A DNA stretch of 64,000 bases, from IMG/VR virus record IMGVR_UViG_3300037453_000171, positions 1 through 64,000 of that record. One strand, written 5' to 3'. This document shows, in pieces, positions 3,528-48,470 of the stretch. The position numbers were made by a program, and so were the translations under genes. Position 1 is the first letter of the stretch. Each line of letters begins with the position of its first letter. The DNA is from a virus (taxonomy: Duplodnaviria > Caudoviricetes). The notes beneath the pieces are model-generated. The model was given only the letters and a program-made list of their open reading frames with translations, was not told the origin of the DNA and made no database searches.

Positions 3528-6500
3528 CTATTGTTTTGTTACATACCAAGCGCCGTTATAAAATACTGCCCTGTATAAATGACCATCACTCAAGTTATAA
3601 CTGGTTTGTCCAGTATAAACACTGCCGTCAACGACAACCGTTATGCTATTACTGCCAGGAGAAAGCGAATAAACAGTTGTTGAATTTCCAGCCACCATAA
3701 ACTCGTAATAAATTCCGCTCATGGAACTGTAATAGCTCGAAGATATTGTCGGAAGGCTAATCACTCCAGACTGAGTGTTTCCAGCAAGAATATAAGTAGT
3801 GCCAGAATCATCCGAATCACAAGAATAAGTCGTTTCCGTAACAAATACGACTGGAAGCCTGTTCTTGAGCGGCCCCTTTACATTCGCCTCTCCAGTAATA
3901 AGCGTATTGCCGGATACCCAAACCGCATCCTTCTGAGTCGCCTGTACGAAAACGGCATAATCCTGACACGGGCCCGGATAAGGGGTAGTGTCTCTGATAG
4001 AAACGAAACCAAGTTCTGTTCTGTCGGCAATTACAAATTTCTGATCTCCAGCAGAAGTACCTTCGCTTCCGCCAGATCCTCTTGTGATATATTCGGTTTC
4101 GTAGCTAAGCGTACTGGCGTTTAATTCAAAGTCAGTGCTTTCCACATAACTCTCCGTAGCGTGATTGACGGAAGCGGACAGACCAAATTGATCAATGTCC
4201 AAGGCGCCTATAGTTCCCTCTTGTGCATCAACATGCCCACGGATTGTTGCGTCATTTGCAATAAACTCTCCCGTATTTCCGTCAATGACAATATTCGGAT
4301 CATCGTCGCTGTCGAGAGACTGGCTTTCGATACGCTCGTTCTGGAATTTGAATCCGGCAAGATTAGCAATCGGAGAAATCAATGTACCGTCAATGTACAC
4401 ATCGTCCGCCGTAAGTTTGATAACGCTGCCAGACTGAAGGGTATAGCCTTTGTTCTGTACCCATTGCGCATAACTGAGCGGAGATCCGTCTTCTTCGAAT
4501 TCTTCGTAGAAATGATAATAATCCCATACATCTCCAGCGCTATTCTTCCACAACTGCGTTGCATCTGCATTGGCAAGTATCTCGATAGACGCAGAGACAT
4601 TGCCATTACCGTCGCCCACGCCTTGCCAGATTTTGTCAGTAGTTATTTCCATACCGGCAAGCGTTGTAGCGTCAAGCTCTGTCAGTGTATAATTCTTGTT
4701 CGCAGCAACCCATTGTTCGTAGGTCTGAACCCTCGGAGCCTGATTGTATTCCGCAAAGAATGCGTAATAACCTTTTATATCGCTATCGTCAGACCGATTC
4801 ACCCAGACCTTATAGACAACGCCAACACCCATCTTTATGCTGTCAGACGTCACCTCAAGCGTACTGACGCTATCTTCAAGATCGCCTATTTGCGCCGCCG
4901 AAAGGCTTATATTAGTTGCATTTTGCTGTATGCGTGTTATTGCATCGTCTATATTTTTAAGCTCGTATGCGCTATGATTGGTTGCAACATATTGATTATA
5001 TGTACCCGAATAGCCACCTTCAACAGCCGTTAAATAGTCGGAATACCAAGTGTCATAAGGCACGCAATACCAATCACCGCTTGTTAAGGTCGTGCTTACC
5101 CAATACGCACTTGAACGAAGAACGGCAAGTTCTATCTTGTCATTAGTCTGGTCAACGACGCTCATCCTGTCAACATATTCCTCGAGCGTCCAACCAGCAG
5201 CAATCATTGTGGCCTCATAGGTTGCGACATCGCCATTAGCAGGGAAAGCATATTCCTGATATTGATTTCCTTTCTTCCAGAACTTGTTGACCTTACCGAC
5301 CATAGATTTAATCTCATCAGCAGTCTGTCGGATATTTGAAAGGACAACATTGGTCTTGATCTTCGTATACGATTTAACGGTTGTTACATACGTCTCGTAA
5401 TCCAGCAGCGATCCACTGCTTTCATATTCATCCTCGAAAGCATCGTAAGCAACAATATCTCCGGAAGTGTTGGTCCACATATATTCATACGAATATACGC
5501 TTGAAGCAATTGCATCAGCCTCCTGTTTTATCTGCGAGAATTCATCAACAGTAACCACAAGCTCGAAAGGACCCGCAGGATGTTCAGAGGTGCCATCTCC
5601 AGAAGGACCACCAGCAGTAGGCGCGGACTCCATGTAGTCCTCGTAATCATAGAAGTTGATTTCAGTATCGTCAGATCCGCTGCCCCAGAATTCATTCCAA
5701 TACAAATCGTAAGGATATATTACACCATCCTTTTTCCAACATGAATGCGCTTTAGATACAATGGACTGGATCACGGCAGCTTCTATAGACAATTCAGAAT
5801 CGAGAATAGAATTGACGTACTGTCTTGTGGCGCAGGCGGATATACGCGCATCAAGACCATCAATGTTCAAAGATGCGGAAATCTGTTGAGCCGTCTTACC
5901 ATTGAAGAAAGCCGAGCCGGTACGGATTACGGCATTTGCGCGAGTGGCATCGAGAATCAAATCAGAAAAAGCCTTCTTCTCGCTATCGGTATAGCTCGTA
6001 AGTACGCTCCACAATCCATCACGAGCGATTATTGAAACATCCGTTCCTTCAATTTGCCCGAGTCGACTATTAAGATTATCAAGACGATCTTTGATGTTAC
6101 CGGATATCTGCGACTGCACATCCTGCAATACGCCGTAAAGATCAGTAAGATCCTGAACGTATGCATCGATAGCAGCACGAAGTTCGGATGCTGTATTCCG
6201 GATCATAGCCTCAAGATCCGCATATTCGCCGGAAGTGTCGTTGTTATACCGACGAGCGATCCAAGAACCGCTTCTGGAATACAGTTTTCCGTTATCAAGC
6301 GGCTTGTCGTAATTGAACTGTATGAAGCACCACAGATACGGCTGCTGCTCTGTAGGAGCAGAAGACGATGTAGACCAGTATCCACCCTGTGCAGACGCGG
6401 GATTTTCTATGCTGATATCCGGAGGGTTAACATTCGTAGAAAGCGTGGAAAGCTTAAACCACAGATCGGCACTGACCATTGAGCGACCGGCTTCACCATC

Positions 6501-22892: not shown

Positions 22893-22920
22893 AGGGTAGC
22901 CCTTCGGGGTTACCCTTTTC
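22893..22920 (+). terminator. Intrinsic terminator
   Basis: gggtagccc-ttcg-gggttaccc-tttt. Confidence 0.85.
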
Positions 22921-23334
22921 TGGTTCATCTGATTCAACACGCCGATTGATCCACGAGATCCAACACGCTTCCTCACGTGCGCGTGCGCGTCACGCGTGCG
23001 GTTTCTCTCTTAATGCGGCCTACTCGACACAGCCGTTATGTTATTATCTTTCGTAGTACTCGTGATCCACAATGTACCATGGAAAACACTGAAACTGTTC
23101 TCTCTCTTCACTGTCTCCAGAACGGATTCATTCTGAATCCTTACGATGAGGTGGATGAGGATTTCATCAGGGAGCAATCCAATTAGTTTGGTTTGCCCGT
23201 GAGAAGGAGGGTATCCCGCCTTTTGCCCTTCTCGCTTTCCTTCCTTTCGCTTTCCCGGATTTCATTTCCCCTGGAATTTCCGCAATTCCGGGGGAAGTGA
23301 TGCAACGGGGGAACTTTAAGGGGGTATTTATTGT

Positions 23335-23460
23335 TGGATAGATAGCATTGTTCTAATAGTAACAATTGTTCTATTAGATCTATTGTTATGTACCAAAGAA
23401 AGAAAGAAAGAATAATATATATAAATATATATTATCCTTCCTAAAGAAAGAAAGGTAGAA
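23335..23460. other. AT-rich palindromic region, candidate replication origin
   Basis: ataatatatat-aa-atatatattat palindrome, aaag repeats and duplicated attgttcta; lies near the strand switch. Confidence 0.4.
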
Positions 23461-23463
23461 ATA

Positions 23464-23566
23464 GTCTTAATGCAGCCATCCATCCTGGAACCGGGATAAA
23501 ATGGATGAAGGTGACAAGCCCTTGCCCGTCAGTGTCTAACACGCGAGAATAATGCAGAGTCAAGAC
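23464..23566 (+). ncRNA. Twister ribozyme (type P1)
   Basis: P1 GTCT/AGAC; U^AA at 23468/23469; P2 TGCA/TGCA; P3 CATCCAT/ATGGATG; P4 AAGG/CCTT with loop TGACAAGC; pseudoknot T1 TGAC/GTCA after GA; T2 GC/GC. Confidence 0.85.
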
Positions 23567-23571
23567 CAAAT

Positions 23572-23727
23572 AACAACTCCGTTTCTTGTGAGGCCCAGGG
23601 ATGGGATTGTCGCCGCAAGGAGCAGAACCGAAAAAGCCGTATCGCTGTGCGGGTGACGCCGAGTATACAGCAACGCCATATATCGGTAAAGGGCTGACCA
23701 GTCAGTGGGATTGGCGACGGAGTTGTT
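23572..23727 (+). ncRNA. Unassigned multibranch structured RNA
   Basis: 11-bp closing stem AACAACTCCGT/ACGGAGTTGTT; inner helices GCCC/GGGC, ACCGA/TCGGT, GCTGT/ACAGC, CCAGTC/GATTGG; CC-GCAA-GG GNRA loop. Confidence 0.55.
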
Positions 23728-23757
23728 TTTCTTTTGACAAATCAAAACTACAATCAT

Positions 23758-24117
23758 ATGAAGAAGATTACTATCAACGGCGTTGAATTCTGTGACTTCG
23801 GATCCAACAACTACAGTAATGGAATGCGTCTGATCACCTGTTATCCTATGCCTGAGAATATGGTTCAGGATGTTCTTGCGGGTAAGTACGAAGGCGTTTA
23901 TCTGAATCCTTCTGCCCGTTGCAGTGAGGAATTCTATGGTGTTCTTGGTACTCCTGAGCAGTACAAGGAGTTCAAGGAACGTCAGGAAGATGCGCAGATC
24001 TCTGGCTTGGTCATTGGCATGGCTGGCGGGTTTGATGCATTTCGCAAGCTTTCTGCCGAAGAATATAGGAAGATTGAACACGAAATTCGTTCTGCCTATA
24101 AGAATTGGTGGGAGTAG
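23758..24117 (+). CDS. Hypothetical protein (between the ribozymes)
   Basis: MKKITINGVEF... with an A-rich leader; the ORF track starts it at 23734. Confidence 0.75.
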   Translation: MKKITINGVEFCDFGSNNYSNGMRLITCYPMPENMVQDVLAGKYEGVYLNPSARCSEEFYGVLGTPEQYKEFKERQEDAQISGLVIGMAGGFDAFRKLSAEEYRKIEHEIRSAYKNWWE

Positions 24118-24123
24118 TATGCT

Positions 24124-24375
24124 ATGAGTAGCGGAAAGAAAAGGTATCGTGCCACGATCCAGATACCTGATATACTGCAAGAGATTCACGACGAACGAGC
24201 CTATGCCCAGTCTATGATAGATCGTAATTGTACTTACGATTGTTATTTCATGGACTGTGGCTATGGCTGTCCTGATGACTGTCCTATTCTGAAGTATTAT
24301 GACATTGTAGAAAGATGTCAGATTCGGGAAGAACAGGATGTAATGAAATTTTTAGGAGTCAGCCCGGGAGACTAA
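24124..24375 (+). CDS. Small Cys-rich protein (between the ribozymes)
   Basis: CTYDC...CGYGCPDDCP cluster. Confidence 0.6.
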   Translation: MSSGKKRYRATIQIPDILQEIHDERAYAQSMIDRNCTYDCYFMDCGYGCPDDCPILKYYDIVERCQIREEQDVMKFLGVSPGD

Positions 24376-24376
24376 A

Positions 24377-24422
24377 TCACACCTGATGAGACCGGGACGA
24401 AACGCTGAGAAGCGTCGTGTGA
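24377..24422 (+). ncRNA. Hammerhead ribozyme (type I)
   Basis: Stem I TCACAC/GTGTGA; core CTGATGA and GAAA; stem III CGCT-GAGA-AGCG; GUC^ site at 24416. Minimal stem II; its loop CCGGG can pair with CCCGG (24363-24367) in an upstream hairpin loop. Confidence 0.85.
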
Positions 24423-24441
24423 AACTAAAAACTATAATCAT

Positions 24442-24651
24442 ATGGATGTTTACAAATATATTTCTGATGAGGTTCGTGAATATTGGAGCCTGACTGAACA
24501 ATATATGAATGAAGTAATTCATTCTGCTCCCGAAGTAACTACCGAGATGGCGGAAGCACATCAGGGCGCGCTTCATAATCTTCGCATGATCATTTCTCAG
24601 GTTAATCGTGAGATTGGTGAATATGAAGCAGAAATTGAACACATTCAATAA
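24442..24651 (+). CDS. Hypothetical protein
   Basis: 69-aa ORF starting 26 nt after the hammerhead cleavage site. Confidence 0.65.
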   Translation: MDVYKYISDEVREYWSLTEQYMNEVIHSAPEVTTEMAEAHQGALHNLRMIISQVNREIGEYEAEIEHIQ

Positions 24652-24665
24652 AACATAGTACGCGT

Positions 24666-24866
24666 ATGAAACAGAGTAACAAGAAGAACCAGAAGGTTCG
24701 CAAGACTCGTCCTTTCGAGGGTATGATGAATCAGTTGAAGCGTGAAACTCTCGTGCTTGTTAACATGGACAAGTTCGAGGATTTCAAAAAGGCTCTCAAC
24801 GATGCCGACGTCGACTATGATCTCGGTGATTTCTACGGTAATGGTATATTCGTAGTCAAGAAGTGA
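24666..24866 (+). CDS. Hypothetical protein
   Basis: 66-aa ORF. Confidence 0.65.
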   Translation: MKQSNKKNQKVRKTRPFEGMMNQLKRETLVLVNMDKFEDFKKALNDADVDYDLGDFYGNGIFVVKK

Positions 24867-24932
24867 TCATTGCCGAGAATCTTTAGATGGTGTCAGCCGG
24901 TGAACATTTTTGTTTTATTGGCTGATTATCAT

Positions 24933-24940
24933 TATCTTTG
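24933..24940 (+). promoter_or_regulatory. Bacteroidota-type -7 element (TATCTTTG)
   Basis: Immediately upstream of the tRNA start at 24944. Confidence 0.45.
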
Positions 24941-24980
24941 AATGGCCCCTTAGCTCAGTTGGTTAGAGCAGCGGACTCAT

Positions 24981-25457
24981 TAGTTCTTTGAAAGAAGAGA
25001 TTGTGTGCACCGGAGGAAACTCTGGATGTAGAACCTCCCTAATTCGGTGAAGACTAAAGATATATTATATGGCGGAATTGGCATACGGCAGTAGATTGAC
25101 GGAAGCACCCTAAAGTCGTCATTAACAAAGCTCTTGGGTTTGTAGGTTCGAATCCTACTATAATATATTTATGTTAATACCGAGCCAATGTTATAGAGAG
25201 TCTTGGGAAAGACCTTAATATATGTCCTATACCCGGACATAATCTTAGACAGTGTGTAGAGACTATACAGGAGGAACCTAAGTTGAAATTATTCTGAGGA
25301 TTTGAGTCAAGGCTCTCAGAGTATCTTGCAAGATTTCAATATGGTTAAGATAGAGTCCAGACCACAAACAAATTAGTGAATAATGCTCGCGTTAAAAACA
25401 GGGGCTATTGCTGCGAAGCTCCCCCGCTAATTTGGTAGTGAAAACTATAGTGGTACG
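24981..25457 (+). mobile_element. Group I intron (477 nt, no ORF) in tRNA-CAU
   Basis: 5' exon ends in U and the intron ends in G; P AATTCGGTGAA, Q AATACCGAGC, R GTAGAGACTA, S AAGATAGAGTCC; P3 CCTCC/GGAGG. Confidence 0.88.
25063..25165 (+). ncRNA. tRNA-shaped domain nested in P5 of the intron
   Basis: 7-bp TATTATA/TATAATA acceptor-like stem, Leu-like D arm TGGCGGAATTGGCATACG, perfect T arm GTAGG-TTCGAAT-CCTAC; aberrant anticodon arm; no CCA. Confidence 0.7.
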
Positions 25458-25554
25458 AATCCGTGGGTCGCAGGTTCAAGTCCTGCAGGGGCCACGAGGT
25501 TTTTACCTCATTCGTGGAGCATTCTGGCACGGCTGTGAAGTCCTGCCAGTTTTT

Positions 25555-25648
25555 GGTCTGATAAGTTAACAGGTGCTAAAACCGCGGTAGGAAGTTAGAG
25601 AAATCTATCTAGCCCCGCATGCCGGTTCGAGTCCGGCTCAGACCACCA
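25555..25648 (+). ncRNA. tRNA-like RNA with encoded CCA but no canonical anticodon loop
   Basis: Acceptor GGTCTGA/TCAGACC plus ACCA; T arm GCCGG-TTCGAGT-CCGGC; D-like arm; anticodon arm replaced by an irregular stem capped by TAGA-GAAA-TCTA. Confidence 0.7.
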
Positions 25649-25681
25649 ATATCTGAAGTATAATTATAAATCTTTGTACAT

Positions 25682-26428
25682 ATGAGTAGTATTCCTACTG
25701 GCAAGCACATCCTCACCGGTGTTTGCGAAATCAGTGTATCCTGTGGATACGATGGTGAGAACACGGCTGAAGGTATTCTCCTTACTATCGACGGGAGGAA
25801 TTATCTTGCTTATACCGATCCGGATGACGGATATCGTTCTTATGGTTGCTTCTTTCAGACTGATGAATACGATCAGAAGAATCCGTTCCCGTATCAGGAT
25901 GTCATCGTCGAGAACCGTCAGTGGGATGAGGAGGATGAAGATGGTTATTACCAGAAAGGCGATGAAGTAGTTATCTACAATGCCGAGGATCACAGCGAGA
26001 TCTTCCGCTGCGGTACCGACAGGAGTGATGACTATTATCCTTGCGGTTATTGGCATTATTATCCGCAGAATCTGCCTATCAACAAGCAAAAGAAGCAGGA
26101 AGAGGACGCCAAGAAGTTCGATGATGCACTGAATACCATGTATGAAGTGTTCGGACTTGAGAAACCCGAATGTCGTATTCCTACGGAGAAGAATCCTGAG
26201 ATTACGGAGTATGAGCAGCTGAAGCCTGGCTCTGATTCCGATGTTGATGCCTTGATTGCTACAATGGATCTCGATAAATGGGTCAGGTTCGAAGCAAAGA
26301 CTCGCGATGCGCTCAAGATCAAATTCCAGGAGGCATTCAAGCAGTTCATGGGTGATCAGTTCTGGCGCAAGAACACCATAGATCTGCTGTCTTTGTATGA
26401 TGCATTCAAAGATATTCTCGGATTATGA
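25682..26428 (+). CDS. Hypothetical acidic protein
   Basis: 248 aa; DPDDGYRS and DDYYP motifs. Confidence 0.75.
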   Translation: MSSIPTGKHILTGVCEISVSCGYDGENTAEGILLTIDGRNYLAYTDPDDGYRSYGCFFQTDEYDQKNPFPYQDVIVENRQWDEEDEDGYYQKGDEVVIYNAEDHSEIFRCGTDRSDDYYPCGYWHYYPQNLPINKQKKQEEDAKKFDDALNTMYEVFGLEKPECRIPTEKNPEITEYEQLKPGSDSDVDALIATMDLDKWVRFEAKTRDALKIKFQEAFKQFMGDQFWRKNTIDLLSLYDAFKDILGL

Positions 26429-26494
26429 TCAGCAAACTTATCGGTATAGCGCTGGTATTACTGGCGCTATACTGTCTTATTTCAGCGTTTTCTT

Positions 26495-26698
26495 ATGGAT
26501 TACATCCTGAAAAATACGAAGACAATGACGAAAGAACAGAAAACTGAATTGGCTCGTGAGCTGTACGAGAATATGACAATCACCAAGGAACAGTATATCG
26601 AGCTCTGCAAACTGTGTGACGAATTAGATCTGTCTCCCGGAGCTGCGCCTTCCGAGCCGGAAGAACCCTCCTGGGATGATATCATCGATAGTATTTAA
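26495..26698 (+). CDS. Hypothetical protein
   Basis: Small ORF; start is probably MTKEQK. Confidence 0.55.
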   Translation: MDYILKNTKTMTKEQKTELARELYENMTITKEQYIELCKLCDELDLSPGAAPSEPEEPSWDDIIDSI

Positions 26699-26873: not shown

Positions 26874-27169
26874 TGAAACGGATGCTTATGTTTACGGTGG
26901 CGCTCTTGATGGGCGCTGCCGTATTTGCTCAGGATTATCAGCTGAACGGTAAGGAATTTTCTTCCGTTAAGAAAGAAAGGACAAAATCTGAATCCGCTGA
27001 TAAGAAGACCGGTTATACTTGGAAGAATTCCAAGGGCAAGGTGTATGACATCTATATCACTCCGAGGGGTGCTTGTTATATTATCTGCGTTTCTTCTAAG
27101 ACTGGTAAGGAATACAAGTCCTATCTTCCGAAAGAGGTCGCTGCGGAAATCAAAAAAGAAATGAAATAA
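26873..27169 (+). CDS. Small exported protein
   Basis: Sec signal MKRMLMFTVALLMGAAVFA followed by Q, the Bacteroidota-style Gln after the cleavage site. Confidence 0.65.
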   Translation: MKRMLMFTVALLMGAAVFAQDYQLNGKEFSSVKKERTKSESADKKTGYTWKNSKGKVYDIYITPRGACYIICVSSKTGKEYKSYLPKEVAAEIKKEMK

Positions 27170-27785: not shown

Positions 27786-30023
27786 ATGATATCAGGAGCT
27801 AATTCATCCGAGAAGGAATTCATTGAAGAACTTGAACAGTTCGGAGGTGATTCCGGAGCGCGTTCCACTGATTCTGTCATTGACAAATTGGAAGAACGCA
27901 GAAAGAATGCCATGCGTGGCGGCGTCAACTGTATTCCATTTCCATTCGAGAGATTCCGTTCCGAGATTCCAGGAATAGAACAGGAACAGTATGTCATCAT
28001 CACGGCATCGACCAAGGTCGGCAAGTGCTTCGGTAAAGGTACTCGTGTTCGTATGGCTGACAACACAATCAAAAACATTGAAGATATTCAAGTTGGCGAT
28101 TGGGTTATGTCACCAGATGACGAAAAGCCTAAACAGGTGCTTTCTGTTAACAGTGGACGAGAACAATTGTATCGAATTCACAGTGAAACTCACGATGACT
28201 TAATTGTAAATGAGAGTCATATTATGTATTTATACAAGCCTAAGCGTACCCATAGAAATGCAAGGTATTTTACTGAAACAATTGGCAATCTTATTGAAAA
28301 GCAAAGAACTGTCAAAACATTCAAGAAAGAATATCTTGCTGTAGCATCAGATGAATGCGATTTTGGATTCGATATTTCGCTTCCAATTGAACCGTATTTC
28401 TATGGTTTATGGCTTGGTGATGGTGCAACGCAAGGATGCGATATTACAACGGCTGATCCGGAAGTTGTCGAGTATCTCAGACAGTATGCCGATAGACTCG
28501 GAATGAAGGTTTCAGAATATACCCATAAATCTTGTGGAAGATATAATATCTGTCGTAAGTCACATAAAGATAAGCTTGGGTTTGAAAAGCGATTAGTCGT
28601 TGTAACTGGCAAGCAAAAAGAGCACATCAATCGCGATTATCTGAATGCTTCGGTTCAAGAAAGATATGAGCTTTTGGCTGGATTGATTGATTCCGACGGC
28701 TATCTTAATCATGCTGGAACCGGATACAAGATAACGATGAAATATCTGTCTTGTATCAAAGATATTCAGGAACTGGCTCGAAGTCTTGGTTTATCTGCTC
28801 ATGTAAATAAGAAATACAATTCTAAGTTAGACCGGTATTATTATATACTCAGTTTATACGGAAAGAATTGTACAAAGATTCCGGTTAAGATTCCAAGAAA
28901 GAAATGCCGTCTTACTTGTAAAGATTCGCATCATTTTTCGTTTTCAATTGAACCAATCGGCGAAGGAGATTATTATGGCTTGACTTTAGGCGGTAATCAT
29001 CTGTTCTTGCTTGAAGATTATACGGTTGTTCATAATTCCCAGCTCGCAAACTATCTGTATCTCTACAATGTACTGGATTATTGTTTCCTGCATCCTGAAA
29101 AATGCTCGTGTCACATAATCTATTTCGCACTGGAGGAATCCGTGCAGCGCGTCATCGAGAGATATATGTCCCATCTGCTGTGGAAGCTTGACGGAAAACG
29201 GTTTGCACCTGCTGATTTGCGTTCTACTTCCGTAGATTATCCTGTTCCGAAGGAAATCATAGATCTGCTCAAGTCCGAGAAATATCAGGAACGGTTCAGG
29301 TTCTTCGAGAAATGCGTTCAGTTCGATACGGAAAACACCAATCCGACAGGTATCCTTCGCACCTGTGAGGAGTATGCGAAAGCCGTGGGCACTTACAAGT
29401 CCAATACTATCACATCCCACTCCGACTGGACTAAGGAAGTAGAGGTATTTGATGATTATATCCAGGATGATCCGAATCATTACAAGATATGCATCATAGA
29501 TCATATTTCTTTGGTTGACAAGGAGCAGGGATTTGGCAAGAAGGAAACCATCGATAAGGTGTCGGAGTATTTCGTCAAGTATCTGCGCAATCGTTACAAG
29601 TATACCTGTGTTGTCATCCAGCAGCAGTCTGCGGAAGCGGAAGGTCTTGAAGCGATGAAGCAAAAGCGTATCGTTCCGAGCAATGCAACCGGTGGTGATT
29701 CGAAGTATACTTTCCGGGATTGTAATATCGCTCTTGGCTTGTTTGATCCGTCCAGATTAGGCTTATCCACTTACAAAGGCTATGACATAGCTGATGGGCT
29801 GAAAAGCTATGGACGGTTCATGAACGTCATTGCCAACCGTGACGGAGAGATGGGCGGTATATGTCCACTTTTCTTCGATGGTGCAGTGTGTAATTTCGAG
29901 GAACTGCCCAGACCTGATGACGTATCGGAAATCAGAAAATACTACGACAAGGTGAATGACCTGAAATCCTGGAAACAACAGAAGAAACTACAACAACTGT
30001 CCTTGTTTAACTTTTTCAAATGA
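27786..30023 (+). CDS. dnaB: DnaB-like replicative helicase (intein-containing)
   Basis: Walker A ASTKVGK|S, YFALEE, IIDHI, VVIQQ, IANRDG. Confidence 0.88.
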   Translation: MISGANSSEKEFIEELEQFGGDSGARSTDSVIDKLEERRKNAMRGGVNCIPFPFERFRSEIPGIEQEQYVIITASTKVGKCFGKGTRVRMADNTIKNIEDIQVGDWVMSPDDEKPKQVLSVNSGREQLYRIHSETHDDLIVNESHIMYLYKPKRTHRNARYFTETIGNLIEKQRTVKTFKKEYLAVASDECDFGFDISLPIEPYFYGLWLGDGATQGCDITTADPEVVEYLRQYADRLGMKVSEYTHKSCGRYNICRKSHKDKLGFEKRLVVVTGKQKEHINRDYLNASVQERYELLAGLIDSDGYLNHAGTGYKITMKYLSCIKDIQELARSLGLSAHVNKKYNSKLDRYYYILSLYGKNCTKIPVKIPRKKCRLTCKDSHHFSFSIEPIGEGDYYGLTLGGNHLFLLEDYTVVHNSQLANYLYLYNVLDYCFLHPEKCSCHIIYFALEESVQRVIERYMSHLLWKLDGKRFAPADLRSTSVDYPVPKEIIDLLKSEKYQERFRFFEKCVQFDTENTNPTGILRTCEEYAKAVGTYKSNTITSHSDWTKEVEVFDDYIQDDPNHYKICIIDHISLVDKEQGFGKKETIDKVSEYFVKYLRNRYKYTCVVIQQQSAEAEGLEAMKQKRIVPSNATGGDSKYTFRDCNIALGLFDPSRLGLSTYKGYDIADGLKSYGRFMNVIANRDGEMGGICPLFFDGAVCNFEELPRPDDVSEIRKYYDKVNDLKSWKQQKKLQQLSLFNFFK
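28026..29036 (+). mobile_element. Intein (337 aa) with LAGLIDADG endonuclease
   Basis: CFGKGT...ESH...VVHN followed by Ser; GLWLGDG and LAGLIDSDG motifs; inserted in Walker A. Confidence 0.93.
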
Positions 30024-38018: not shown

Positions 38019-39572
38019 ATGACGAATAATATCAAAATGGACGATGTGAAGCGCCTCGTCAACTACACCATCGACAACAACATGACGCTTCAGGAGAATG
38101 GCGAAGTTCCTATCGCCATTTCCCTTGAAGCCAACGCAGGTATCGGAAAGACTTCTATTCTACGCCAGATCGCAGAAGAGAGAGGGATGAAGGTAACCAA
38201 GCTGGATCTGCATCAGATGGAGGAAGCGGGAGATTAACTTGCTTTTTTGAAAAAGTACTCAAATCACGTGAATCTTGGGAACTCCGCCAACAGACGGAAG
38301 ACCATAATGGAAGCGCTTCGGAAACGGAGTGAACCATCAGAGACTAGTACATACCTTCTGACCGGATGGCGCCGAAGAAGATGAAGTACCACGAGTGCGT
38401 GACATCGCCTTTTGTCTGCCAAGGCTGAACGGGTGATGAAGAGATAGTCCGAACTGCATAGTAATATGCAGAAGCATGGGATAAAGAGCCCTTGCGATAA
38501 CATAATGCTAATCGGTTTCCCGCAAGTAGAGTACGAGTGCCAAGTGGCACAACTTATTAAAACTGAAGATGGTGAAACAAAATTAAAAGTCCTTCCTAAT
38601 ACCGTCTGGTTGAATGCGAAGCAGTTTGATGCTCCGGCTCCCGGAATGAAGTATCGTCAGACCGGTAAAACCAGAATGGGTTATGCTAAGCCCGCATGGG
38701 TCCCGGAATATAACGAGAAGGGAAATCTCGTCATCCTTGATGACTATGTGAGAAGTAACCCGCAGCTCCTGCAGGCTTGTATGGACCTGATTCTGGAACA
38801 GGAATATGTTTCCTGGAAGCTCCCGAAGGGAACCACCATCGCGTTGACCAACAATCCGGATGACGGCACGAACAACGTCAATTCTCTGGATGAAGCCCAG
38901 CGGACCAGATTCATGAACTACACGGTCGACTTCGATCTGGATTCCTGGATGAAGTGGGCCGAATCCGTGGGTATTGACGGTCGCTGCATCAATTTCGTCG
39001 CCTCCTATTCCGGGGAGCTGTTCAACGCGGATGACGAGGGCAATCGCATCTGCAATCCGAGATCCTTCGTCATGTTCGCCAACATGATCAAGGGTATCAA
39101 GGACTGGGATAACCCCGATAGCCTTGCATTCATCTCCATGATTTCCAAGGGATGTTTCAAGGATGAAGGCGGTCGTTTCTCCGCTATGTTCACATCCTTC
39201 ATCCGTAACAAGATGCACCTGCTGATCCAGCCGAAGGACATGCTTCTCGGTGGATGGGATCGTATCAAGAAGATCCTGGAGGATACACTGTACGATTCCA
39301 ACAACCAATATCGCCCGGACATCGCATCCCTGCTGGAGCGCCGTTTCTCCAACTATGTTCTGGCATGGCTGGATTCCAAGGAAGATACTCCTATCTCCAA
39401 GGTGAAGGACAGAATCCTCGATTTCATCGATTGGAAGAGCACCGATCCGAACCGGAAGTTCCTGTTCAACAAGGATCTGTTCTATAAGATGGTCAAGAGC
39501 ATCACTTCCGATCATATCAACCAGACCCGGAAGCTGCTGTTCGAACCGAAGATCGCTAAAATGATTTCCTAA
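38019..39572 (+). CDS. MoxR-like AAA+ ATPase, exons 38019-38234 and 38508-39572 (426 aa spliced)
   Basis: Walker A AGIGKT in exon 1; Walker B ILDD, TNNP and LDEAQRTRF in exon 2; junction reads EEAGD|LIGFP. Confidence 0.85.
38235..38507 (+). mobile_element. Group I intron (273 nt, no ORF)
   Basis: Exon ends in U and the intron ends in G; R CAGAGACTAG, S AAGAGATAGTCC, P3 TCACG/CGTGA; removal restores the reading frame and motif. Confidence 0.87.
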
Positions 39573-46605: not shown

Positions 46606-46969
46606 TGCCGGATTTGATTTGACGGCAGTATCTGTTGAGGAGGACAGGAAACGGAATATCGTTACCTACCATACGGGTATTTCCGTATCGTTGCCCGAAG
46701 GATACTTCGGTCTGCTTTGCCCTCGTTCAAGCGTATATAAGCATCAGCTCCAACTGGCGAACGGATTAGGAATCATCGACCAAGGTTATCACGGAGAGTT
46801 GATCTTCAAGTATCGTATCGTTCAGCCACACATCAGCAGGTATCCGGTAGGAGAAAGGGTGGGACAATTGGTTGTCGTTCCTTACCCGGAATTGGAACTG
46901 GAAGAAGTGGATGAATTTGAAGATTCCGACAGGGGTACCGGAGGATTCGGATCTTCTGATAACAAGTAG
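46541..46969 (+). CDS. dut: dUTPase
   Basis: AGFDL, PRSS, GIIDQGYHGE, GERVGQ, RGTGGFGSS. Confidence 0.95.
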   Translation: MKLKFKKLTPDAVMPMKAHPSDAGFDLTAVSVEEDRKRNIVTYHTGISVSLPEGYFGLLCPRSSVYKHQLQLANGLGIIDQGYHGELIFKYRIVQPHISRYPVGERVGQLVVVPYPELELEEVDEFEDSDRGTGGFGSSDNK

Positions 46970-48186
46970 TCTATTACTCTGCGATTAGCGACATCCACGG
47001 CTTCCTGATTAAACTTGACATAAATGAGAGTGGTCCTGTTGCCTGACGAATGGCCCAGTGCCTGCGAGATAACATCGAGGGAGATGCCTACTTCATAAGC
47101 AAAGGTAGCCCAGCAATGACGAGCATAGTATGTGGAGATTTCCGGGATGACCGGCGTAATGGTTTTTAACAGTCGTGGTGTACCAAATAAATCCTCCGGA
47201 TCTGGAACCATCTCCCATCTTACGTCTCCTATCTCCTTCAGCTTGTCGTTCATCTCGTGTACGAAATTCTTGTAGTGCTTGCAATGGTCCATTGCCTCCA
47301 GCAGATACCGCTCTCCTCTGTATTTTTTCAGCAGTTCCTCAGCCTCCGGTTCAATCTTGATTGAATATTTCTTATGTGTCTTCTCCCGGATATATTCGAG
47401 CCTACCATTAACAATTCGTTTCTCACTAGCCAACAACAGGTCTTTCGAGTTTATTCCGATGAGATAGAACATGAGGAGGAAATAGTCGCGATACCTGCAT
47501 AGATTTGCTGGTGCCGGATGGTTGAGGAACTTCCTGAAGATTTCTATGGACACGGACCGTTTCTTCGTCGGTTCATGCTTGATCGAGAAGTTCTCGAACG
47601 GATATGTCGATACGGCTCCGGTGTGTTTTGCGTAATTGCACACAGCCCGGAGACTGCGGAGATAGATGGCCCTTCCGTTTACCCCCTGGGTCCTCGCCAG
47701 AAACCTTTCAAACTGATGCAACCATTTAAGATTTATGTCTTCCATCTTCAGCGTCTTGCCTCCGAACGCAAGAACCTTCGAGAGCGTAGTCCTGTAGATT
47801 TCTTTCGTTCCTTCCTTGATATCCCGGACAAGATATTCCGTAAACATATCTGATACGAGATGAACTGGCTTGACAACTTTCTTTTCCGCTATCGCCTGCT
47901 TGATTTGCGGAGCAGTCATAGAATCGAATCTATCCGATCTATCAGGATCTATTGATAGATACGCAATAGATCGATCGACAGAAGATTTCTTCTCCGCAAG
48001 CCTTGCGTTCAAGGCGTCGGAACCAGGAACGCCCTTGATATGATTGCCATCCCATTCATTCGGAGCCACACGGATACCGGTAGGAATCATAGCCGTTGTC
48101 CGGTTATGATAGATGGTGATGACGATGCTGCCTTTCCCGTCTTTCGCTCTACCGCGAAGATCCAGGTAAAACCTTGTTGTTGCCAT
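46882..48186 (-). CDS. int: Tyrosine integrase (Bacteroidota type, with arm-binding and SAM-like domains)
   Basis: MATTRFYLD arm-binding N-terminus; catalytic region GINSKDL, REKT, YYARHCWAT, LGH, TLIY. Confidence 0.9.
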   Translation of the reverse strand: MATTRFYLDLRGRAKDGKGSIVITIYHNRTTAMIPTGIRVAPNEWDGNHIKGVPGSDALNARLAEKKSSVDRSIAYLSIDPDRSDRFDSMTAPQIKQAIAEKKVVKPVHLVSDMFTEYLVRDIKEGTKEIYRTTLSKVLAFGGKTLKMEDINLKWLHQFERFLARTQGVNGRAIYLRSLRAVCNYAKHTGAVSTYPFENFSIKHEPTKKRSVSIEIFRKFLNHPAPANLCRYRDYFLLMFYLIGINSKDLLLASEKRIVNGRLEYIREKTHKKYSIKIEPEAEELLKKYRGERYLLEAMDHCKHYKNFVHEMNDKLKEIGDVRWEMVPDPEDLFGTPRLLKTITPVIPEISTYYARHCWATFAYEVGISLDVISQALGHSSGNRTTLIYVKFNQEAVDVANRRVIDYLLSEDPNPPVPLSESSNSSTSSSSNSG

Positions 48187-48217
48187 GTTGAAGTATTTAC
48201 TACAAATATATGAATTT

Positions 48218-48470
48218 GTCTGCATACGATTCCGCATAGCGAATTATAGATGTAGAATAGCGATTTTAAAGGCAAAAACAAAAAGGCTTCAAAAATCCTT
48301 GCGGGAGATTGAAGCCAATCAATTGAAAATTAAAGAGTTACTTATGTGGAGATAAGGGGATTCGAACCCCTGACCCCCTGCTTGCAAAGCAGTAGATTTC
48401 TCCGCTTAATCACATGACAGTCACATAAATAGATATGAAAGAAAATAATTCTGCAAATGATTCTGCAAAA
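48218..48470. other. attP: tRNA-Ala(UGC) 3' half as core (48347-48392, minus strand) flanked by arm repeats
   Basis: Reverse complement CTGCTTTGCAAGCAGGGGGTCAGGGGTTCGAATCCCCTTATCTCCA with no 5' half; arm repeats gtctgcatacgattccgcatag (48218) and ttctgcaaatgattctgcaaaa (48449). Confidence 0.8.

Follow-up and report, generated by a model that had tools for sequence, protein, structure and literature searches.

Twister and hammerhead ribozymes bracket the head of the early arm in a crAss-like phage from cattle gut

Two ribozymes and their cargo at the head of the early arm

The stretch of DNA analysed (64,000 nucleotides, referred to as the window) is part of the complete 99.9-kb genome of a Crassvirales-like phage with a Steigviridae-like portal, a crAss-like phage from cattle gut whose nearest cultured relatives infect Bacteroides. 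Where the early arm begins, directly 3′ of a conserved promoter-like motif, the + strand carries a twister and a hammerhead ribozyme that bracket a structured RNA and two open reading frames (ORF1 and ORF2), the first early transcription unit (Table 1). The first-pass annotation had described two ribozymes on the same strand around this cargo, and sequence, Rfam models, structure and covariation place both of them as claimed; the two frames listed between them are genuine open frames with homologues. Positions 22900-26500 of the window were matched by four runs, all of them bovine-gut DNA contigs and none of them RNA. Neither 23300-24900 nor the hammerhead had a DNA match among deposited phages.

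Table 1 Features at the head of the early arm, in positions of the window
Feature	Position	Strand	Basis
Promoter-like head of early arm (putative promoter)	23392..23460	+	Motif counts, relatives
Type-P1 twister with P3 and P5-like insert	23464..23566	+	RF03160, MFE fold, covariation
Multibranch RNA and U-tract	23572..23737	+	Fold
A-rich ORF1 leader	23738..23757	+	Resembles in sequence the leaders found 3′ of ribozyme cuts
ORF1, 119 aa	23758..24117	+	Open frame with homologues
ORF2, 83 aa, Cys-rich	24124..24375	+	Open frame with homologues
RAGATH-1-type (type I) hammerhead	24356..24422	+	RF03152, covariation including pseudoknot
Downstream product: 25-nt A-rich leader from the predicted hammerhead cut, then ORF3	24417..24651	+	Sequence
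ORF3, 69 aa	24442-24651	+	Sequence

In the Rfam scan, the RAGATH-1 hammerhead model RF03152 matched 24356-24421 on the + strand with 50.3 bits (E-values of 4e-7, 2e-5 and 7e-9 with a 1.3-kb stretch, the whole window and the genome, respectively, as target). The score falls short of the gathering score of 56.3, which can be attributed to a short stem III and a 3-nt linker deletion; the hammerheads of close relatives score 54-63 bits. The core CUGAUGA (24384-24390) ... GAAA (24400-24403) is intact, with core columns that are invariant in 15 sequences, and the cleavage triplet is GUC, giving a predicted cut at C24416^G24417 after which the hammerhead body remains on the upstream RNA. The topology is type I, with a stem I of CACAC/GUGUG and a 5-bp stem III with a GAGA loop, both of which covary, and the loop of an upstream hairpin, CCCGG (24363-24367), pairs with the loop of the one-pair stem II, CCGGG (24393-24397). 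Alignment with 14 relatives showed 90.8% pairing, a level that 0 of 500 shuffles reached, and the pseudoknot between the hairpin loop and stem II was 98.6% paired with two covarying pairs (CUAGG/CCUAG, CCAGG/CCUGG and CUCG/CGAG in relatives). A 22-nt string made up of the core and this CCGGG loop was present in 11 of the 15 aligned hammerheads, and the remaining four covary at the stem-II loop. The last seven codons of ORF2 and its stop codon fall within the upstream hairpin of the hammerhead.

The twister-P1 model RF03160 matched 23464-23565 on the + strand with 29 bits against a gathering score of 67.2 (Rfam scan; E-values of 8e-4, 0.039 and 1.4e-5 for the local, window-wide and genome-wide searches, respectively). 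Several visible features depress this score: P3 is long, a P5-like insert adds 24 nt, P1 pairs only with a 1-nt shift (GUCU with AGAC), and the T1 pseudoknot has gone from CCC/GGG to GAC/GUC; a covariance model gives no credit for such a pseudoknot change. Related phage twisters, at 51-57 bits, likewise lie under the gathering score. The Infernal-type check proposed earlier, with twister-P1 and hammerhead models, therefore returned both ribozymes at the claimed sites, each below its gathering score. The predicted cut, U23468^A23469, agrees with the RF03160 alignment, and the twister body remains on the downstream RNA after this cut. The RF03160 alignment and the minimum free energy fold both recover P1, P2, P3, P4 and the P5-like hairpin in type-P1 order, ending at P1. 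In an alignment of the twister with four others from phages, 97.9% of the cells were paired and 11 pairs had compensatory changes, whereas 0 of 500 shuffles reached this level and slid controls paired at 25-40%; P2 and P4 covary with the relatives. All three T1 pairs, GAC (23513-23515) with GUC (23559-23561), are compensatory and 100% paired over the five sequences (CAC/GUG and CCA/UGG in relatives), and the T2 pseudoknot (GC/GC), which like T1 links the L4 loop with the internal loops, is invariant in the same alignment. The conserved U^A-A cleavage site, GCC, AAGC, the A-rich strand and GAG are all present in comparison with the model and the four phage twisters.

A separate 55-nt element, a candidate compact twister, is found in two metagenome contigs, 3′ of the promoter-like motif (L114) or of the hammerhead (L115). 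It has GGYGACAAG and GAGUCAAGC in common with the twister described above, and its T2 is changed from GC/GC to GU/AC; the Rfam scan did not report it.

The promoter-like element 5′ of the twister consists of AAAGAAAG repeats that flank an AT-rich near-palindrome on both sides, and ends 3-4 nt 5′ of the twister. The motif AAAGAAAGAAAGG occurs four times in the window compared with 0.12 occurrences expected, with three of the copies (two of them overlapping) at 23395-23455 and the fourth at 26968. In relatives, this same motif is found directly 5′ of the 5′ ribozyme (L041, L115, L117, L118 and L125) or heads the early arm (L114 and L017), and the sequence pattern suggests that the element functions as a promoter. 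A search with the pattern TTTTGAYAAATCAAAACTA matched 44 viral contigs, of which only L013 and L041 are relatives and the others are chance AT-rich matches. Between the two ribozymes, TAnnTTTG was not found on the + strand and there is a single weak sigma-70-like consensus match, located within ORF2 (24149-24176); ORF1 and ORF2 therefore most likely rely on the upstream start for their transcription.

The RNA that follows the twister is closed by an 11-bp stem (23572-23582 with 23718-23728) and is followed by a U-tract (23729-23737). This stem and U-tract bear out the structured RNA of the first-pass annotation, although the folding energy of 23572-23728 is no better than that of shuffles (z -0.9, not significant). 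No Rfam family matched it, and a pattern search with the string GCGGGTGNNNCCGARTATA gave matches only in coding regions of unrelated contigs and no further homologues. The accompanying caveat about the U-tract stands: an 11-bp stem followed by a U-tract looks terminator-like, and it may end some or most transcripts, with a stop at about 23737.

ORF1 belongs to a family of small phage proteins with 72 homologue clusters, all unnamed. It had no match in Pfam or PHROG, and its AlphaFold model (pLDDT 95) had no fold match in PDB or BFVD (best values, Foldseek E of at least 0.09 for PDB and a VIA-align Z of 3.5). One homologue (83% identical, L125) lies between a pistol ribozyme and a hammerhead and another (76%, L126) between two hammerheads, but no ribozymes are near the ORF1 relatives in L001 (49% identity), L127 and L129-L133, so ORF1 is not obligately associated with ribozymes. 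Only two homologues of ORF2 were found (L013, 49% identity, and P0073/L128, 87%), each directly 5′ of a hammerhead.

Ribozyme class, cargo and spacing in related phages

The hammerhead is syntenic: L013, L017, L041 and the metagenome contigs L114-L125 carry it where the early arm begins. The slot occupied by the twister in this phage holds a pistol ribozyme in L041, L115, L117, L118, L120 and L125, with scores of 52.5-59.3 bits that exceed the pistol gathering score of 34.5, and a hammerhead in L126 and also in the GC-rich, non-syntenic contig L119. No 5′ ribozyme was detected in the close relatives L017 and L013, and a RAGATH-1 hammerhead was not found in five named Asinivirinae genomes (E <= 0.01); the bracket is therefore dispensable for such phages. 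The enclosed cargo also varies, from structured RNA alone in L041/L115, where the structured RNA contains the only frame, of 59 aa and doubtful, to one ORF in L118, L120 and L125, structured RNA with one ORF in L117, two ORFs in L126, and structured RNA with two ORFs in this phage. The expectation that relatives would keep both ribozymes while swapping the cargo thus held for the two-ribozyme bracket and for the cargo, but the upstream ribozyme was not kept as such, since its class also changes among twister, pistol and hammerhead. The locus is a ribozyme-flanked phage cassette, with at least two ribozymes on one strand around a short gene block whose gene identity varies.

The presence of the same boundaries in relatives with different cargo and a different 5′ class argues that the cut is under selection and not a particular ribozyme. 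A pistol ribozyme departs with the 5′ leader and a twister-P1 remains on the product, so the outcome that these classes share is a 5′-OH cut and not a fold. Of the 17 ribozyme cuts that were scored, 9 lie 22-27 nt before the first long ORF; it is 37-198 nt away from the remaining eight, among them cuts that precede a structured RNA or a twister-like element. The 25-nt leader of ORF3 is identical in L122, and the 22-27-nt class recurs after seven further hammerhead or pistol cuts in relatives.

Proposed processing of the first early transcript and competing explanations

Taken together, we propose, with a probability of roughly 55%, that the two ribozymes act in cis as signals for processing the first early transcript. 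Transcription would start at the AAAGAAAG/AT-rich element just 5′ of 23464, and the twister cut at 23468/23469 would remove a short 5′-triphosphate leader, leaving a 5′-OH on an RNA that starts with the twister body and the multibranch RNA. Part of the transcripts may stop at the U-tract (about 23737) to give a non-coding RNA of roughly 270 nt, and read-through RNA carrying ORF1 and ORF2 would then be cut by the hammerhead at 24416/24417. The expected product is a discrete RNA of 948 nt that terminates 3′ in a compact hammerhead fold with a 2′,3′-cyclic phosphate, and the same cut would release the next mRNA with a 5′-OH and a 25-nt unstructured A-rich leader before ORF3. The bracket would in this way uncouple the first cassette from the remaining early operon and give each piece ribozyme-defined ends, which should set the stability and translation of each piece independently. 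Cleavage in vivo, and an effect on stability or translation, are what we infer from this arrangement. A 5′-OH or a 2′,3′-cyclic phosphate would not necessarily benefit an mRNA inside a Bacteroidales host, and in Bacillus a 5′-OH end can even promote decay (glmS). Prophage hammerheads occur in multiples, flank genes and cleave in 2-kb transcripts, and have been proposed to process long phage RNAs (PMC3088659); a review proposes likewise for twister (PMC6765202).

A first competing explanation, which we consider rather unlikely, is that the twister serves only to define the 5′ end of the multibranch RNA (23572-23728), which is terminated at the U-tract, and that the hammerhead belongs to the next unit, making the sandwich incidental. 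Consistent with such maturation of a non-coding RNA, L041/L115 and L117 show the same order of elements with a pistol as the 5′ ribozyme, followed by the counterpart RNA with its closing stem and then by the U-tract, which is kept, and L041/L115 lack a long ORF between the ribozymes. However, L118, L120 and L125 have a pistol, an ORF and a hammerhead with no structured RNA, and the 5′ ribozyme therefore does not need one. The RNA of this phage also aligns poorly with its counterparts in L041 and L117, whose folding z is likewise not significant, so that the three RNAs fold no better than shuffles, and the expression of ORF1 and ORF2 requires read-through.

The first-pass annotation had suggested a circular or nuclease-resistant RNA; that host RtcB seals the 948-nt fragment into such a nuclease-resistant circle, whether an mRNA or a non-coding RNA, is very unlikely. 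RtcB joins 5′-OH and 2′,3′-cyclic phosphate ends, and the chemistry of the two cuts does give fragment 23469-24416 these ends, provided both ribozymes cleave; that such ends are an RtcB substrate is established and used in Tornado. Several relatives keep the two-ribozyme bracket despite the change of class, so both ends seem to matter, and the genome of Bacteroides thetaiotaomicron, a species of the genus infected by the nearest cultured relatives, was examined as a control and has RtcB. Against closure, the first and last 40 nt form no joining helix here or in five related brackets (duplex z -1.5 to +0.9), which agrees with the caveat raised at the outset, the best duplex being no better than shuffles in all six. 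Both ribozyme bodies are kept on 23469-24416, as a twister-P1 cuts at its 5′ edge and a type I hammerhead at its 3′ edge. RtcB, already noted as not visible in the window, was not found in the phage genome, nor were an Rnl-type RNA ligase or a 2H phosphoesterase. Relatives without a 5′ ribozyme occur (L017), and the 22-27-nt spacing between cut and AUG points to end definition of a linear mRNA. These features speak against a circular-RNA device, and for hammerhead-flanked prophage genes circular or spliced products were sought and none was detected (PMC3088659). If the reading were true, an RtcB-sealed first early cassette would be an exonuclease-proof early mRNA or non-coding RNA in infected Bacteroidales, and the first natural case in a DNA phage of a circular RNA made by ribozymes plus RtcB. 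In a variant that involves no circle, an interchangeable promoter-proximal ribozyme would strip the 5′-triphosphate from the earliest RNA transcribed once the genome has been injected, which could for instance hide that RNA from a host sensor or nuclease.

There is also a slim chance that the ribozymes are conserved recombination linkers or selfish passengers with little benefit at the RNA level. The homology of relatives' DNA contigs is lost exactly at the cassette edges (23460/61, and 24115>24357 in variant contigs that fuse these positions and hence lack ORF2), cargo is mosaic among relatives, a 22-nt search string comprising the hammerhead core and the CCGGG stem-II loop is identical in 13 metagenome contigs, and the ORF1 homologues of L127 and L129-L133 are ribozyme-free, all of which would fit passengers or linkers. 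The compensatory changes in stems and pseudoknots, however, show selection on RNA structure and not on DNA identity alone, and the fact that unrelated classes replace one another at the one site points to selection for cleavage. That one element is inactive, or that both never lie on one RNA, leaving no bracketed fragment, is equally improbable: the twister reaches just 29 bits, its P1 is shifted and it carries a large insert, and the U-tract after the 11-bp stem of the multibranch RNA looks terminator-like, but the twister keeps all conserved positions and both pseudoknots, no alternative promoter for ORF1 and ORF2 was seen except the weak match inside ORF2, and natural twisters tolerate many imperfections (PMC11662667).

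Comparison with known ribozyme systems

In the engineered Tornado circular RNAs, two ribozymes leave a 5′-OH and a 2′,3′-cyclic phosphate on the enclosed RNA, as they would here; the Tornado ribozymes reportedly detach from the product by their own cuts, and the two ends are brought together by a designed stem, whereas in this phage both ribozyme bodies are kept on the fragment and there is no end-joining stem. Retrozymes and viroid-like hammerhead circular RNAs, which occur in eukaryotes or as RNA replicons, likewise derive a unit-length molecule with ligatable ends from the RNA between two ribozyme cuts, but they carry two copies of one ribozyme and rod-like folds that juxtapose the ends (PMC4918200, PMC7761336), and the locus described here has neither same-ribozyme ends that reconstitute the ribozyme nor such a rod fold. 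The theta (HDV-like) ribozymes of gut phages are also small self-cleaving RNAs that act as RNA-processing signals, a role that for the present phage is a proposal; they adjoin tRNAs and mature tRNA ends (PMC10879173), while the ribozymes here are of different classes and flank cargo that is partly protein-coding and partly non-coding.

The biological role that self-cleaving ribozymes play in bacteria and phages has been called 'largely elusive' (PMC6765202), and none of the papers searched links crAss-like phages with hammerhead ribozymes. Both ribozyme-flanked phage genes and the idea of a circle were already published in 2011 (Perreault et al. 2011, PMC3088659), so that the locus by itself is nothing new in kind, and the circular RNA is speculation. 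As in those prophages, several same-strand ribozymes flank single genes or short blocks of varying identity, for which processing was proposed. Unlike them, the bracket combines two classes (twister and hammerhead, or pistol and hammerhead in relatives), occupies one fixed promoter-proximal site in a lytic-type crAss-like genome, and has cargo that is partly structured RNA. As cited in PMC4604425 and PMC6765202, Weinberg et al. (2015) reported that twister, hammerhead, pistol and RAGATH motifs associate with each other and with phage genes, and the present hammerhead, a RAGATH-1 variant, similarly co-localises with a different self-cleaving class near phage genes. The association in that work, as far as these accounts describe it, was statistical and served discovery, whereas the present comparison adds the replacement of one class by another at an orthologous site and a constant spacing between cut and start. 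One orthologous promoter-proximal site in crAss-like phages thus holds a twister, a pistol, a hammerhead or nothing, with a hammerhead conserved downstream, and constitutes a natural experiment in which the swaps and the 22-27-nt spacing argue for selection on the cut and the resulting RNA ends. It also yields concrete predictions that can be tested for an abundant order of gut phages, on where transcripts begin and end and on how stable and how well translated they are.

Two ribozymes at the start of the early arm

The full record is complete (99,880 bp, direct terminal repeats), with the window as its first 64 kb, and encodes a giant ORF of 3,656 aa. Its portal protein shares 52-57% identity with Crassvirales portals (Steigviridae, Asinivirinae: Kolpuevirus, Kahnovirus, Mahlunavirus); the hosts known for these phages belong to Bacteroides. 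Two gene arms diverge, meeting at ~22-23.4 kb, and the ribozyme-flanked cassette opens the + strand (replication/early) arm. Among public runs, this stretch was present in bovine-gut DNA metagenomes only.

Rfam scanning and model alignments agreed with the first-pass annotation in placing a twister and a hammerhead here, with predicted cuts at U23468^A23469 and C24416^G24417, and between them folding gave a structured RNA, and two open frames with homologues are present. Both scores are below the gathering score, the twister due to a long P3, a 24-nt P5-like hairpin, P1 pairing shifted by 1 nt and a T1 pseudoknot of GAC/GUC (consensus CCC/GGG), and the hammerhead due to a short stem III; many such imperfections are tolerated by natural twisters (PMC11662667). 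Each was the sole match of its class in a whole-genome scan (hammerhead, E = 7e-9; twister, E = 1.4e-5). Alignment of the twister with four twisters of other crAss-size phage contigs showed that 97.9% of cells were paired, with compensatory change in 11 pairs; all three T1 pairs were compensatory (GAC/GUC in the window vs CAC/GUG and CCA/UGG), none of 500 shuffles matched the observed pairing, and slid controls were 25-40% paired. In the hammerhead alignment (15 sequences) 90.8% of cells were paired, and the RAGATH-1-defining pseudoknot, in which the loop of the upstream hairpin pairs with that of stem II, was 98.6% paired and covaries (CCCGG/CCGGG, CUAGG/CCUAG, CCAGG/CCUGG, CUCG/CGAG). Both ribozymes are independently supported by this covariation, and self-cleavage is predicted.

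Ribozymes and associated features in the window and in related viral or metagenome contigs
Feature	Sequence	Position	Strand	Evidence	Cargo of bracket
Promoter-like element, AAAGAAAG repeats either side of AT-rich near-palindrome	window	23392-23460	+	directly 5′ of twister	
Twister, type P1	window	23464-23565	+	Rfam scan of 23300-24600: 29 bits, gathering score 67.2	structured RNA + ORF1 + ORF2
Multibranch RNA, 11-bp closing stem, then U-tract	window	23572-23737	+	fold	
ORF1	window	23758-24117	+		
ORF2	window	24124-24375	+		
Hammerhead, RAGATH-1-type	window	24356-24421	+	Rfam scan of 23300-24600: 50.3 bits, gathering score 56.3	
ORF3	window	24442-24651	+		
Pistol	L125	383-441		Rfam scan	ORF1 homologue (83% identity), between pistol and hammerhead
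Pistol	L118	1683-1745		Rfam scan	one ORF
Pistol	L120	10529-10590	-	Rfam scan	one ORF
Pistol	L117	1017-1078	-	Rfam scan	structured RNA + one ORF
Pistol	L041	6890-6952	-	Rfam scan	structured RNA alone
Pistol	L115	1077-1139	-	Rfam scan	structured RNA alone
Second hammerhead at upstream site	L126				another ORF + ORF1 homologue, between two hammerheads
Hammerhead, twister-P5-like, twister-P1 series, then tRNA genes	L065	2406-3656			
Same series	L062	5727-6826 and 11660-11895			
Same series	L063, L061				

Three of the four AAAGAAAG matches in the window fall within the promoter-like element, the fourth being at 26968. The multibranch RNA matched no Rfam family and its folding energy was no better than that of shuffles; it and its U-tract are followed by a 20-nt A-rich leader, ORF1 (119 aa), ORF2 (83 aa), the hammerhead, a 25-nt leader and ORF3. 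Between the ribozymes, TAnnTTTG is absent from the + strand, and a single, weak sigma-70-like match occurs (24149-24176, inside ORF2). ORF1 belongs to a widespread family of small phage proteins (at least 72 unnamed clusters), and its high-confidence predicted fold (pLDDT 95) had no match among solved structures (PDB) or viral predicted structures (BFVD). Cys-rich ORF2, for which two homologues are known, is always immediately 5′ of a hammerhead. As these are the first early genes, analogy suggests roles in host take-over or anti-defence; ardA lies between hammerheads in Agrobacterium (PMC3088659).

Farther down the arm are a tRNA-like gene (24944-25494) with a sub-threshold group I intron match inside (24976-25379, 41.5 bits) and a 91-nt tRNA-like RNA (25555-25645, 29.2 bits), so the early leader region is rich in RNA elements. 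ARAGORN called no tRNA within the 64-kb window; in a short near-identical contig (L122, 124-197, - strand) the site matching the split gene is occupied by an uninterrupted tRNA (62 bits). Another group I intron match below threshold (38204-38471, 40.8 bits, gathering score 50) was seen, as was an intein (Hint + LAGLIDADG homing-endonuclease domain, Pfam E 5e-20 to 4e-12) in a helicase/primase-like ORF (745 aa, 27786-30023). A tyrosine-integrase-like ORF (46882-48237; Phage_int_SAM_5, Arm-DNA-bind_5), unusual in a crAss-like genome, adjoins a tRNA-like fragment (48347-48419, 31.6 bits).

Upstream ribozyme and cargo in related phages

Syntenic relatives were collected by tblastn of neighbouring genes (L013, L017, L041), with the hammerhead core pattern (metagenome contigs L112-L124) and through homologues of ORF1 and ORF2 (L125-L133). 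Rfam scans of their loci showed that the RAGATH-1 hammerhead keeps its place where the early arm begins, but that its upstream partner differs. In six contigs a pistol ribozyme (52.5-59.3 bits, gathering score 34.5) occupies exactly the site of the window twister, directly 3′ of the AAAGAAAG promoter-like motif and 5′ of the conserved hammerhead. A second hammerhead holds the upstream site in L126 and likewise in L119 (a GC-rich, non-syntenic contig), and no upstream ribozyme was detectable in L017 or L013. The first-pass annotation had raised the pattern of both ribozymes being kept while the cargo is swapped: the hammerhead is kept and the cargo differs, but the upstream class changes or is not detectable. 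Related-phage DNA contigs from other cattle samples match the window to 23460/61 and diverge beyond, and some join 24115 straight to 24357, lacking ORF2; the cassette edges therefore fall at the ribozyme edges. The RAGATH-1 hammerhead was absent from all five named Asinivirinae genomes checked and had no match among deposited phages, so a cultured model is still lacking.

A ~55-nt conserved element not reported by Rfam occurs in L114 (~4650-4710, +) and, directly 3′ of the hammerhead cut, in L115 (-). It has GGYGACAAG and GAGUCAAGC in common with the window twister and forms a 5-bp P4-like stem; its T2 pairing may have changed in a compensatory way (GC/GC to GU/AC), and it may be a compact twister variant, in which case L115 would hold three ribozymes within ~520 nt.

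A different crAss-size clade follows a similar pattern, with a hammerhead followed ~95 nt on by a weak twister-P5-like element (18/43 contigs) and after ~1 kb by a twister-P1 (11/43). A permuted tmRNA model (gathering score 47) matches two of its contigs, L062 (66 bits) and L063 (58 bits). In L060 (6722-6910, -) a RAGATH-1 hammerhead lies only 49 nt downstream of a twister-P1, and the excised piece would be almost wholly the two ribozymes.

Proposed processing of the early transcript and its alternatives

At 9 of the 17 ribozyme cuts scored, the first long ORF begins 22-27 nt downstream; the other eight (37-198 nt) include cuts 5′ of a structured RNA or twister-like element. The leaders after the cuts are A-rich and resemble one another. 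Such leaders fit ribozyme-defined mRNA 5′ UTRs in a host group that is not known to depend on Shine-Dalgarno pairing. Pistol and type I hammerhead cut near their own 3′ edge, so the body leaves with the upstream RNA, whereas twister-P1 cuts at its own 5′ edge and its body is kept by the downstream RNA; that classes of opposite geometry are interchangeable at one site argues that the cut itself is selected (5′-OH, no triphosphate leader), not one fold.

The pair would thus act as processing signals, excising the first cassette from a polycistronic early transcript. The upstream cut would remove the triphosphate leader and give a 5′-OH end, and the hammerhead cut would leave the upstream piece ending 3′ in a compact fold with a 2′,3′-cyclic phosphate; each product would have defined ends, which probably affect stability and translation. 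We infer in vivo cleavage, its consequences and the promoter alike, and give this reading slightly better than even odds (about 0.55). Cleavage and translation may also be coupled: the upstream hairpin of the hammerhead (24356-24373) contains the last seven codons of ORF2, with its stop (24371-24375) also inside, and a terminating ribosome would open this pseudoknot-forming hairpin. In L125 the stop of the ORF1 homologue lies at the beginning of the hairpin.

The twister may instead mainly mature the structured RNA, whose end may be the U-tract; pistol, RNA and U-tract form such units in L041/L115 and L117, but L118, L120 and L125 lack this RNA. Ribozymes that serve chiefly as recombination linkers, or persist as passengers, would suit the mosaic edges, yet the compensatory changes indicate selection on RNA structure. 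One ribozyme may be inactive, or termination at ~23737 complete. The two cuts would necessarily yield 5′-OH and 2′,3′-cyclic phosphate ends, which could in principle be joined into a circle, and RtcB would be present in a Bacteroides host (seen in a control list), but sealing of the 948-nt fragment into the circular RNA first proposed is improbable, as no helix juxtaposes the ends in the window bracket or five related ones, both ribozyme bodies are retained, some relatives lack the upstream ribozyme, and the phage, when searched, had no RtcB (the missing ligase and end stem having been noted at the outset), Rnl-type ligase or 2H phosphoesterase.

Comparison with known systems

Retention of both ribozyme bodies is the opposite of the design of Tornado, the engineered circular-RNA system of two ribozymes and RtcB. 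Ribozyme-flanked phage genes were already known in 2011; circular or spliced products were sought for such prophage genes and none detected, and a processing role was proposed for the clustered hammerheads (PMC3088659), as it was for bacterial twisters (PMC6765202). That twister, hammerhead and pistol are associated with one another near phage genes was known in 2015 (as recounted in PMC4604425). A literature search returned no paper combining 'crAss-like' and 'hammerhead'. Three features appear new: the placement in Crassvirales-like phages, around the first cassette next to the promoter; an orthologous site at which ribozyme classes directly replace one another; and the recurring 22-27 nt spacing from cut to start codon.
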